IMG/VR virus record: IMGVR_UViG_3300021197_001350 | Location: 1 to 64,000 of that record | Strand: one strand, 5' to 3' | From: a virus | DNA length: 64,000 nt | Part shown: in pieces, positions 52,231 to 55,887 of the stretch | How the letters are laid out: each line of letters opens with the position of its first letter | Numbering within the stretch: the first letter of the stretch is position 1 | The notes under the pieces: generated by a model | The model's input: only the letters and a program-made list of their open reading frames with translations | Told to the model about the DNA's origin: nothing | Databases searched by the model: none | Translations under genes and position numbers: made by a program

Positions 52231-52404
52231 TTAACTCGCTTCCCCAAGTTTTTCAGGGGGCATATACTCTAATACACCAGATGGATCCCTACTAGTCAAG
52301 CGGATGAATACATCCAGCACCTCAAGTAGGTCACAAGTAGGTATAGAATCGTCAACAGATAACTCTATATCCTGTCCACCGCCCTCCCATTTTAAAGTAA
52401 TCAT
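52231..52404 (-). CDS. 57-aa hypothetical protein (MITLKWEGGGQDIELSV...)
   Basis: Hand translation; ATGA coupling to upstream stop; not in track. Confidence 0.6.
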   Translation of the reverse strand: MITLKWEGGGQDIELSVDDSIPTCDLLEVLDVFIRLTSRDPSGVLEYMPPEKLGEAS

Positions 52405-52893: not shown

Positions 52894-52933
52894 ATGACAG
52901 CCGTAAACCCTTGAATGACAGCCAGTTGCTAGG
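52894..52933 (+). promoter_or_regulatory. Tandem ATGACAGCC boxes, 21-bp period (copy 1)
   Basis: Boxes at 52894 and 52915, followed by AGTTGCTAGG; same arrangement at 54772. Confidence 0.7.
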
Positions 52934-53025: not shown

Positions 53026-53430
53026 ATGCAAAACCCATTCGCAAACGATAACACCCATCCGCAAGAAAAGACCAACATCGCTCCTCTCCTTACAGGAGAT
53101 AAGTTAATCACTCTGCTAGCAAAGCTAGCTGAGAAGGGATTGATGGAGTGGGACGCTGAGCGTAGCTTAGCAATGGTTGCAAAGCGTGTGTTAACACAGA
53201 CAGCAGGAAGCACTGAGGAAGCTCAAGGACTTCGTGGTTGGCTTTCAAGCCAAGGCTTCAGAGGTTCCCGTAGAAGCAGAAGCTTCTACCTTTCTCTCAG
53301 CGACTTGGAAAGTCGTGGCGTTACCATCACCGATGGTAAACCACAAGTTTGTGAACCAAAGGTTCAACAGGCTAAAGGTCGTAGCAAAGCTACACTGAAC
53401 TTTTCCGACATCATGGGGCTTACTGAGTAA
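53026..53430 (+). CDS. First early-region hypothetical protein
   Basis: AGGAGG upstream; followed by a terminator. Confidence 0.75.
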   Translation: MQNPFANDNTHPQEKTNIAPLLTGDKLITLLAKLAEKGLMEWDAERSLAMVAKRVLTQTAGSTEEAQGLRGWLSSQGFRGSRRSRSFYLSLSDLESRGVTITDGKPQVCEPKVQQAKGRSKATLNFSDIMGLTE

Positions 53431-53442
53431 GCCTTGTGATTG

Positions 53443-53481
53443 GGGTAGCCCTTCGGGGCTACCCTACCTTTTTTTTCTTTT
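53443..53481 (+). terminator. Intrinsic terminator
   Basis: GGGTAGCCC-TTCG-GGGCTACCC followed by a long T-run. Confidence 0.9.
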
Positions 53482-53514
53482 CGTTCAACAACAACAACAT
53501 AGGAGGATATATAT

Positions 53515-54123
53515 ATGTCTATCGACACAGCAGTATCAGCAACATCAACAATACAAACACCATCCAATATGGATGATGCAGATTGGAGTCACTTTCGTAA
53601 GCTCGACAAGTTAGAGCTTGATTGGTCACCTCGTTCCATCTTGGATCATCTCAAGATTAGCCCTAACACTGTCCGTAGGATATTGGGCTACTCCGAGACC
53701 AAGGTGGCTAATGCTGAAAGGCATCTTCGTTATAAGTCTTCAACTTATAAGCCACAACCTTGCAGTTATGTTGTCCGTCCCATAAGGGAGGATGAGATAA
53801 ATGGTGAGGATGTTAGGATGAAAGTGGTTGACTACTATGATGGTGACAGGGTTAAGCCTGGCTATAAGCCATCACCACTAAAGGTTGACCGAGGTGGTAT
53901 AGGTTATGAGGATGCCTTCTACGAAGCAGTAGGTTTGGGAGGTGACAAACATAGATTTCCAATCGTTGATGTTGAACAGGGTAATGATGATGAAGTTGCC
54001 ACTATGTCTTACGAACATAAGACAGGTGGTGCTATAAGCTTCGTCAAGAAAGCAGTAGCCAAGATGACTCGCCGTAGGAACTACGGAACTTGCTTGTCTA
54101 CTATCAGTCCTTACAGATCGTAA
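53515..54123 (+). CDS. HTH-containing hypothetical protein
   Basis: WSPRSILDHLKISPNTVRRIL HTH; AGGAGG SD. Confidence 0.75.
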   Translation: MSIDTAVSATSTIQTPSNMDDADWSHFRKLDKLELDWSPRSILDHLKISPNTVRRILGYSETKVANAERHLRYKSSTYKPQPCSYVVRPIREDEINGEDVRMKVVDYYDGDRVKPGYKPSPLKVDRGGIGYEDAFYEAVGLGGDKHRFPIVDVEQGNDDEVATMSYEHKTGGAISFVKKAVAKMTRRRNYGTCLSTISPYRS

Positions 54124-54131
54124 GGCTGAAC

Positions 54132-54163
54132 CGACCCACTTGGGGGTCGTTAAACATACCAAG
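54132..54163 (+). ncRNA. H-type pseudoknot (copy 1)
   Basis: S1 CGACCC/GGGTCG, S2 CTTGG/CCAAG, loop 3 TTAAACATA. Confidence 0.65.
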
Positions 54164-54169
54164 ACACTT

Positions 54170-54752
54170 TTTCGGATGGTAGTATGGCTACTATGCTTCG
54201 CCAAAAGCATGGAGAAATCCAAGTTATGAGGTTAGGAAGATTGACCACGGCATCCATATGGATGACTAGGTTGGCTTACTCATGGTAACCCTATCTATGG
54301 GGTTTGATACCGAGGCTGAGTCTCATGTCGTTGATTATTCAGTCGGGCTTTATATGCATAGATTATCCTGTAATACAGGGTGTCGGTCTCTCCTTCATGA
54401 GAGGCATAGGAATCCCAAGTATAGATGAACGATCTATTGAGGCTTATCACCTTTCTATACTCCAAGATCAGGCATAGGGGATAACAGCATCGTGGTTTAC
54501 CAGTCGGTGCTAAGGTGGGGATCATCGTATGGTGTGACCACCAAGAACGGGGACAACATTTATACGGAGGGTTGTCATGCAGTATGGCGGTAGGGGGCTA
54601 TACTAATATTTACTTTTGAACAACGATATACATCACGCTGCAGATGGTCACTATATCGGGGTCGGTTTGGTAAGAGCTTGGACTAGTGACGGCTAGTCTA
54701 CATTACCTTAACTCTCGGTGTTAGAGAGGCTGACCTGTTCATACCTTTTTTT
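54170..54752 (+). ncRNA. Candidate large structured ncRNA A (~580 nt)
   Basis: No long sense ORF; more than 12 hairpins plus nested long-range helices; ends in T7. Confidence 0.55.
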
Positions 54753-54771
54753 ATTTACATTTTCAAAGAAA

Positions 54772-54811
54772 ATGACAGCCGAAAATTGGCGAATGACAGC
54801 CAGTTGGTAGG
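54772..54811 (+). promoter_or_regulatory. Tandem ATGACAGCC boxes, 21-bp period (copy 2)
   Basis: Boxes at 54772 and 54793, followed by AGTTGGTAGG. Confidence 0.7.
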
Positions 54812-54897
54812 GCGAGCAGTTGATTTGCTGTTTCACTTGTGTATTATATTTATAAAATCAATGGATGCTTCCGCATCCATGTGTTGGAGGAACTGCT

Positions 54898-55005
54898 ATG
54901 AAGATAAAGATACGGAAGCCTATATTGTTTACCAAGTCTAGACCATTCAAGGTTAAGGCTAAGGTGTTGCATCGTAAGATGAAATACAAGGAGAGGCTAG
55001 CTTGA
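54898..55005 (+). CDS. 35-aa basic peptide MKIKIRKPILFTKSRPFKVKAKVLHRKMKYKERLA, loosely ArfA-like
   Basis: Hand translation; GGAGG SD at correct spacing; preceded by ATGGATGC/GCATCCAT hairpin. Confidence 0.65.
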   Translation: MKIKIRKPILFTKSRPFKVKAKVLHRKMKYKERLA

Positions 55006-55039
55006 TAGGGCAAGCAAATAATCCCTAACAATTTACTTT

Positions 55040-55576
55040 TGATGGATTGATCATCCATCATGGGACGCTAGTAGAAGTCACAACCTTAGTGACACTAGCA
55101 CTCATGTCCGAGTGATGCTCGGGGTCAACGGCTAAGTAGCTGAGGCTAGGTGAAGGACACCGATGTAGGGTAACGCCTACCATGAGGTACTGATCTGACA
55201 ATCCTATAAACTGAACTATAGGTATGTCTCCTGCAGGTGAGGGTTCACAGCCCAAGTCCTGTCATTGTCGCATAATAATGGACTTAGGAACATAGTGCGA
55301 ACAAGGTCTGCAATGTTGCAGGTTCAACGAGCAAGTGCTTGAGAACGGGTTAAACACCTACCAAGTTGCGGAGATATCATGTCGTTAACTAAGGATCAGT
55401 TGGGAGAAGGCTGAAGAGTAATCTCCCCCCGACCATTTTACTTTAGCCGTGTGGCAAGTTCGTTGTAAAAAGAACTAGAATGATGAGTTGGTAGAACAGA
55501 ACGCTCTGCAAGAAAATCTACCATGAAATAGTGCGAATCATAGGGTAACGACCTTGAGGCCAATCATCCACGGCTA
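55040..55576 (+). ncRNA. Candidate large structured ncRNA B (~540 nt, possibly two modules)
   Basis: Long-range helices CTCATG/CATGAG, ACTGATC/GATCAGT and TAGCCGTG/CACGGCTA enclose multiple hairpins. Confidence 0.6.
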
Positions 55577-55608
55577 TTCATTTTCACCAACAATAACAAG
55601 GAGGAAAT

Positions 55609-55887
55609 ATGAATGACGATACATTAAGACAAGCGGTAAGAATGAAGCAAGGTATTGAATGCCTTAGCATAAGAGATCTCAACAAGTTAGTAGGTGCTTA
55701 TATACTAGGCACTCAACCTAGCTATATTGTTAGGTCTGCTATCAGTGATGTCGCTAAAGAAGAGTTCGTCAAGGAGTATGGAAAGGCTCAGCTATCTTGG
55801 GTAGATAATGCCGAGCAATACTCCAAAGGTACGGAAGCCAACTTCATCCTGGAGTCAATGCATGGCGACAGGATAGAGCGTTTATAA
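55609..55887 (+). CDS. Hypothetical early protein
   Basis: AAGGAGG SD; ORF track. Confidence 0.75.
   Translation: MNDDTLRQAVRMKQGIECLSIRDLNKLVGAYILGTQPSYIVRSAISDVAKEEFVKEYGKAQLSWVDNAEQYSKGTEANFILESMHGDRIERL

Follow-up and report, generated by a model that had tools for sequence, protein, structure and literature searches.

Comparative sequence evidence for a composite structured RNA in the 3' untranslated region of a phage early gene

The locus and its relatives

The DNA analyzed here, called the window, consists of positions 1 to 64,000 (the first 64 kb) of the 74.4-kb IMG/VR record IMGVR_UViG_3300021197_001350. Its gene content includes a large terminase, a 5,658-aa ORF, and a replication block made up of a Sak-like annealing protein, a PD-(D/E)XK nuclease, a replisome organizer, DnaB, and SSB. 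The best identity of the terminase to any GenBank phage is only about 25%, and the phage lineage is therefore considered unstudied. The largest gap between ORFs of at least 100 aa in the window spans 1,485 bases (54124-55608). It begins after the stop codon of a 202-aa gene at 54123 and ends at the next gene of normal size, which starts at 55609. The genes flanking the RNA region have strong GGAGG ribosome sites. The features found between the 202-aa gene and the next transcription unit are collected in Table 1.

Three independent lineages were compared, and with only three the covariation counts given below are necessarily small. The first lineage is the window together with its twin (L004/L005/L007/L011, a single contig), which has 97% DNA identity to the window. 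The second is L008, in which the 202-aa protein is 73% identical and DNA identity is 75-81% throughout 54000-55612. The third is L010, which has a homologue of the 202-aa protein with 46% identity. A fourth lineage (L006/L009) is represented by a contig that stops 147 nt past the gene, hence it gives no RNA match. The non-coding blocks of the region are conserved as much as, or more than, the neighbouring protein.

Table 1. Positions of the upstream gene, the RNA domains, and the boundary elements in the window
Feature	Positions	Strand	Description
Upstream 202-aa gene	53515-54123	+	From the ORF list; the RNA occupies the 3' untranslated region of this gene
H-type pseudoknot	54132-54163	+	Starts 8 nt past the stop codon; compensatory pairs relative to L008
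Domain A1	54193-54606	+	About 410 nt, multi-helix; in the window, L004, and L008, absent from L010
Variable peripheral stem of A1	54513-54560	+	From pairwise and three-way alignments
Single-stranded U-rich linker TTTACTTT	54609-54616	+	Directly 5' of the A2 basal helix
Domain A2	54617-54741	+	125 nt, seven helices; conserved in all four sequences
T7 run	54746-54752	+	4 nt past the A2 basal helix
Probable start of the next transcription unit	54772-54813	+	Direct repeat pair ATGACAGCC (21 nt apart) followed by an extended -10-like site, TGnTAGGGC

Searches beyond these relatives recovered little. Pattern scans of IMG/VR with motifs from A2, A1, and the downstream module B recovered only the 97% relative, and three further matches to the A1 motif (L085-L087) proved to be a 20-nt chance match within a 666-aa ORF. 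A scan of 185,579 species genomes with an 18-mer from A2 gave 73 matches. These were rejected as chance, since all of them are seed-only under R1, a model built on A2. Model R1 finds exactly one copy per genome, with no second copy in the phage. A blastn search of 54124-55608 against GenBank phages gave no match.

Among 5.8 billion proteins, only seven are relatives of the 202-aa protein, and it has no matches in PDB, NCBIfam, PHROGs, or the ESM Atlas. Its AF2 model has a pLDDT of 33 and is unusable. An earlier note on this DNA, made from the sequence alone, had labelled the gene as HTH; this label is weak, as the matches are all sub-threshold (HTH_32 with an E-value of 0.0086 and an IS21 N-terminus with an E-value of 0.06). 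In an alignment of six homologues with identities of 44-75%, the visible indels are whole-codon gaps, and residues 167-202 (54016-54123), which are the last 36 or so, are nearly invariant, even where overall identity is only 44-50%. The DNA that encodes these residues differs by about 19% between lineages with the peptide nearly unchanged, showing that the constraint on the last 36 or so codons acts on the peptide. The idea that the 3' end of the gene is conserved as RNA was rejected for this reason. The C-terminal segment could serve as a tail that docks a conserved partner. Apart from their conserved adjacency, nothing supports a functional tie between the protein and the RNA.

A strong canonical intrinsic terminator, with an 11-bp GC-rich stem followed by T8, is present at 53441-53478. 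It separates the 202-aa gene from the first gene of the early unit, so that transcription of the 202-aa gene and the RNA would depend on read-through, antitermination, or a promoter that has escaped notice. No conserved promoter was found for the RNA itself. Farther upstream, the 97% relative carries about 320 extra bases (L004:12505-12826) at window position 52246/52247. The insertion point lies in a block of - strand genes between the replication genes and the early units.

Structure and domains of the RNA

The region from the stop codon to the T7 run is genuine non-coding sequence. The earlier note had described about 580 nt without a long sense ORF, ending in T7, and both observations hold. 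There is no + strand ORF longer than 57 aa in 54124-54752 with table 11, and the corresponding stretch of L008 has none longer than 25 aa. Alternative genetic codes (table 4, TAG=Q, and TAA=Q) did not open a convincing frame; they give frames of 97-112 aa only, and none is kept in the relatives. The alignment with L008 contains ten 1-nt indels, and the substitutions fall into the codon phases as 38/32/26, showing no 3-periodicity. A protein-coding gene was rejected on the basis of these indels, the phase counts, and the lack of a kept frame. The small ORFs of the region match no Pfam family.

The RNA does not belong to a family represented in Rfam, which agrees with the statement in the earlier note that no family could be assigned. 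No family was matched at the gathering threshold by the whole window or at E<=10 by 53400-55700, 54124-54770, and the L008 and L010 homologues. Group I and II introns, RNase P, tmRNA, 6S, OLE, HEARO, riboswitches, and T-boxes were among the candidates eliminated at E<=10. ARAGORN detected no tRNA or tmRNA in the 64-kb window.

Folding of the single sequence gives modest values. The region has z-scores of -2.1 (+ strand) and -3.9 (- strand); A1 alone has an unremarkable z-score of -1.5, and A2 has -3.4. On thermodynamics alone the structured-RNA finding is weak, and because single-sequence folding is modest the case rests on covariation and on folding of the alignment. Compared with column-shuffled alignments, the alignment fold has a z-score of -7.1 on the + strand (-149 kcal/mol) and -5.4 on the - strand (-117 kcal/mol). 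Folding against shuffles, a check named in the earlier note, is thus modest for the single sequence, with larger scores for the alignment. The strand was assigned from several observations: the + strand alignment fold is better by 32 kcal/mol, the flanking genes are co-oriented, a T-run follows the RNA, and about 18 of the 164 consensus pairs are G-U on the + strand. The many G-U pairs that the earlier note had seen on this strand come to this number in the consensus.

Compensatory changes are found even between the window and its 97% twin. They include a change from C-G to U-A in hairpin 54361-54384, two double changes in hairpin 54680-54699, and one change from G-U to A-U. The A1 consensus fold, made with L008, has 128 pairs, 13 of which are changed on both sides with pairing kept, and 98.7% of its cells are paired. 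Slid controls, in which the partners were moved by 1-3 columns, have 0-1 double-changed pairs and about 40% pairing. Since the A1 consensus was derived from the same alignment, an independent test was run with the MFE fold of the window only. The substitutions in L008 produce 7 compensatory pairs in this fold compared to 2.2 expected (P 0.0035) and 22 broken pairs compared to 31 expected (P 0.0065), the null being the same substitutions re-dealt among columns. In the A2 consensus of four sequences, compensatory changes affect 7 of the 41 pairs and five of the seven helices, and 98.2% of cells are paired.

A structured RNA in 54124-54752 is very probable on this evidence. The alignments show it as a composite, non-coding RNA of the + strand, under purifying selection, in which helices are held by compensatory changes. 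The earlier proposal of a structured RNA on this strand downstream of the 202-aa gene is borne out by the compensatory changes in the relatives.

The individual helices proposed earlier fared differently. All eight local hairpins are present in the sequence, and only six are kept in the three-lineage consensus (54193/54210, 54211/54220, 54251/54264, 54486/54511, 54552/54576, and 54680/54699). The hairpin ATAGAT/ATCTAT is outcompeted by a covarying, longer-range A1 helix that pairs 54418-54425 with 54454-54461. The hairpin AGTATGGC/GCTATACT, which is outside the six, holds in the window and in the twin, where a G-U pair becomes A-U, and has no clear counterpart in L008. Among the enclosing helices, ATCCC/GGGAT holds up, with two compensatory pairs, and TATGAG/CTCATG is present in one of the two consensus folds. 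CACCTT/AAGGTG and GTGACCA/TGGTCAC each have one arm in the variable peripheral stem of A1. Neither is conserved, because this stem is replaced by a different, longer sequence in the 97% twin (L004) and is deleted in L008.

The unit is composed of four pieces, namely the pseudoknot, the lineage-variable A1 of about 410 nt, the 8-nt linker, and the 125-nt A2. It is not the single unit of about 580 nt that had been envisaged, since A2 is conserved separately and A1 is swapped in L010. The pseudoknot has a stem of 54132-54137 with 54144-54149, in which three pairs are compensatory relative to L008. Its loop at 54139-54143 pairs with 54159-54163, and as read from the alignment CUUGG/CCAAG is changed to CGGGG/CCCCG in L008. 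Stop-codon read-through was considered as a role for the pseudoknot and dropped, because a second stop comes one codon after the first.

Fifteen A1 helices were recovered in both independent consensus folds, which disagree on the long-range helices closing the domain. Hairpin 54211/54220 has a GNRA loop, which is GAAA or GCGA depending on the lineage. In L010 an unrelated segment of 234 nt (L010:1644-1880), with a folding z-score of -6.0, lies between the gene and A2 and replaces A1. L010 retains A2, the U-run, the promoter repeats, and the small ORF that follows them. The presence of A2 without A1 in this lineage indicates that the two are separable modules, of which A2 is constant.

A GGAGG sequence within 54565-54579 is conserved in the 13-nt loop of the A1 hairpin 54552-54576, which may form an exposed Shine-Dalgarno-like loop. 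It is followed in the window by an ATG that opens a frame of only 9 codons, and this frame is not kept in L008.

A2 is built on an AU-rich basal helix (54617-21/54737-41) that is stacked on an 8-bp helix (54659-66/54729-36), and the latter encloses two more hairpins. Another hairpin (54624-34/54643-58) has an invariant apical region of 20 nt. In the single-sequence fold of A2 the MFE structure is identical to the centroid. Loops of 20, 14, and 10 nt are invariant across lineages in which the neighbouring protein is only 46% identical, and this constraint far exceeds what a plain terminator needs. A U-run is found at the matching place in L008 and L010. The T7 run of the window probably marks the transcript end. 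A simple terminator scan of the consensus did not call the T7 run and A2 helix.

The linker TTTACTTT is found at 54609, 55032, and 55437, in each case directly 5' of the first helix of a module (A2 and the downstream modules B and C, respectively). Three of the five + strand copies in the 64 kb fall within this 1.5-kb stretch, and all three sites are kept in L008. The 8-mer may serve in processing or in the binding of a protein. A promoter fits less well than a linker or cleavage function, because a start site after TTTACTTT would remove the covarying A2 basal helix. A reading of TTTACTTTTG as a Bacteroidota-type -7 promoter was dropped on account of the strong GGAGG ribosome sites and the absence of a -33 TTTG, and it is also disfavoured because a start site there deletes the same helix.

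Related systems and possible roles

To our knowledge, bacterial and phage RNAs longer than 400 nt with elaborate conserved folds are rare, and the few known are GOLLD, ROOL, OLE, and raiA. Each of these raised new questions, the latest being RNA-only nanocages. The present candidate is notable because it lies outside these families, has a defined setting at the 3' end of an early unit, and combines a conserved core with an exchangeable domain. It is placed among the large phage-borne structured ncRNAs, a known class, as a new family, ROOL and GOLLD being excluded by their covariance models.

The comparison with ROOL and GOLLD made in the earlier note stands with respect to size and setting and fails in that neither model matches and no tRNA genes are present in the window. 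Like GOLLD (RF01998), the RNA is phage-encoded, very large, ornate, and of unknown function. In GOLLD the 3' domain is conserved and the 5' domain is variable (bioRxiv 10.1101/2024.12.08.627333). The likeness here is in layout only, with the 3' part conserved (A2 in all four sequences) and the 5' part (A1) variable or replaced. In contrast to GOLLD, the RNA is about 630 nt long instead of often more than 800, there are no adjacent tRNA genes, and the GOLLD covariance model gives no match at gathering or at E<=10. ROOL (RF03087) is similar in size (about 580-660 nt), is encoded by phages or prophages, and has many helices, and it has no known protein partner or function (bioRxiv 10.1101/2024.12.08.627333). 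The ROOL model matches neither the region nor L008 or L010 at gathering or at E<=10. While ROOL is often located beside tRNA islands, the location here is within a phage (terminase, DnaB) with no tRNA gene in the 64-kb window. A further difference from ROOL is that the RNA occupies the 3' UTR of an early gene and has an evident modular build, in which one domain can be exchanged from relative to relative. Assembly into RNA-only homomultimeric nanocages is a further hallmark of GOLLD and ROOL.

Other points of comparison are 3'-UTR-derived bacterial sRNAs, whose usual release is by endonuclease cleavage in U-rich single strands, and structured intrinsic terminators. The RNA resembles both in its location from stop codon to U-run and in that the helix of the last domain adjoins the U-run. 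However, it is about ten times larger than a typical 3'-UTR-derived sRNA, and no seed or target is evident. Compared to structured intrinsic terminators, the terminal domain is a seven-helix junction and not a single GC hairpin.

The preferred interpretation, with a probability of roughly 40%, is that the RNA is the 3' non-coding part of an early transcript and is cut into one or more stable trans-acting RNAs, with A2 as the core and transcript end and A1 as an accessory. The RNA in 54124-54752 would be made as the tail of an early transcript that also carries the 202-aa gene. Transcription would end at the U-run, making A2 a protected 3' end, and the precursor would be cut in the U-rich linkers adjoining each module. 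RNase E-type enzymes prefer U-rich single strands beside helices, and the idea of cleavage in the linker is based on this preference. Once freed, the RNA or RNAs would bind a conserved partner from host or phage and thereby work in trans at an early stage of infection, with A2 as the functional core and A1 as an exchangeable accessory domain. This mechanism is preferred for several reasons. The structure and invariant loops of A2 exceed the need of a terminator, and a plain hairpin terminator is used elsewhere. The design of linker plus module recurs behind another promoter, and modules come and go between relatives like accessory cassettes. In addition, a start site after the linker would delete a covarying helix. 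Counting against the mechanism are the small number of independent lineages (three), the long-range helices of A1, which vary between folds, the A1 z-score of -1.5, and the upstream terminator at 53441-53478 together with the failure to find a conserved promoter for the RNA. The A2 basal helix also counts against it, being AU-rich, 4 nt from the U-run, and uncalled by the terminator scan.

Some of the same evidence bears on roles in cis. It is possible, though somewhat unlikely, that the region is purely a cis-acting 3' UTR with no trans function. In that case the pseudoknot, A1, and A2 would shield the early mRNA from 3' exonucleases, and A2 with the U-run would insulate the first early unit from the next promoter. 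This would suit a region that lies between the stop codon and the U-run and directly upstream of the next promoter/operator repeats, has the A2 basal helix adjoining the U-run in all lineages, and lacks a detectable conserved promoter of its own. However, a plain 11-bp GC hairpin (53441-53478) ends another unit, and covarying structure over 600 nt, with invariant loops, goes far beyond what such a function needs; the linker-plus-module design also recurs downstream of a different promoter. A more elaborate role in cis would be that of a riboswitch-like regulated attenuator, in which a ligand or factor sensed by A1 determines the formation of the A2 terminator and thereby sets read-through into the downstream early operon. 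The two consensus folds offer a basis for such a switch, since 54619-54621 pair either with 54223-54225, closing A1, or with 54737-54739 at the base of A2, and in L008 position 54619 has changed from A to G, which the A1 pairing tolerates as U-G and for which the A2 pairing compensates. Nevertheless, the helix closing A1 shows one-sided changes only, the downstream unit has its own conserved promoter region, L010 keeps A2 without A1, and no riboswitch or T-box model matches, so that regulated attenuation appears improbable.

There is also little likelihood that the RNA forms a self-assembling RNA-only particle of the GOLLD/ROOL kind and represents a new homomultimer-forming family. Its size of about 600 nt, its phage-borne and ornate nature, the conserved GNRA loop, and the GOLLD-like arrangement of its domains, the 3' one conserved and the 5' one variable, would fit such a particle. 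The GOLLD and ROOL models fail to match even at E<=10, however, there are no tRNA genes nearby, and no covarying palindromic loop was seen in the alignments. The possibility that the region has no RNA function and is a decayed gene or spacer with chance structure is very remote and has largely been refuted already. The modest single-sequence z-scores, the - strand scoring as well as the + strand, and the small number of sequences could be cited in its favour. On the other hand, the compensatory changes are far above the shuffled and slid controls, the unbiased single-sequence test agrees with them, and the alignment z-score is -7.1. Non-coding blocks conserved as well as the neighbouring protein or better, and the lack of any ORF remnant that matches a Pfam family, also argue against decay. 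The least likely explanation of all is an element that acts as DNA instead of RNA, such as a replication origin or packaging site. The replication module (replisome organizer, DnaB, and SSB) is only a few kb away, but the region has no iterons and no tandem or inverted DNA repeats beyond the hairpins, and its sole repeat relative to the rest of the genome is a 40-nt promoter motif. The many G-U pairs are workable only in a + strand RNA, and the changes within the helices are compensatory.

If the modules are processed trans-acting RNAs, as the preferred interpretation holds, they would represent RNA-based early functions in an unstudied phage lineage. In that case the 125-nt A2 would be a small conserved domain that is tractable for structural and pull-down work.

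Downstream unit and modules

The downstream boundary of the RNA is marked by the ATGACAGCC repeats and the -10-like region. The same pair of repeats heads an early unit at 52894-52933 and is found nowhere else in the window, with 0 occurrences expected by chance. The repeats and the TGnTAGGnn site that follows them are conserved in L008 and L010, and they are probably a promoter with operator sites.

Module B (approximately 55040-55435) is a second large structured RNA. It is 95% identical to its counterpart in L008, and the small number of differences includes four compensatory changes of base pairs. None of the neighbouring protein genes is conserved to this degree, and the module has no Rfam match. 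The adjacent structured modules together make up about 2% of a compact phage genome, and the A1/A2 RNA is the first of several. A broader and rather unlikely interpretation is that the pseudoknot, A1, A2, B, and C are structured-RNA cassettes that can be exchanged and are arrayed along the 1.5 kb of 54124-55608, each placed after the same U-rich 8-mer and released by processing as in tRNA arrays. The cassettes would then serve in host takeover or counter-defence and form a new class of RNA effectors from the early region of a phage, some of them perhaps self-assembling like GOLLD and ROOL.

A very basic ORF of 35 aa (54898-55005, starting with MKIKIRKP) with a GGAGG site is located between the RNA modules. 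Its counterparts in L008 and L010 show synonymous changes and a 3-nt indel that keeps the frame, and this conservation indicates a real small gene. Its product has no family in Pfam, NCBIfam, PHROGs, PDB, or the ESM Atlas.

L008 has two inserts relative to the window. One of about 140 nt follows the U-run after A2 (L008:1846-1975), and another of about 170 nt follows module B (approximately L008:2705-2866). The first has a folding z-score of -0.4, which is no better than chance. Both inserts are flanked by the same kinds of boundary sequence.
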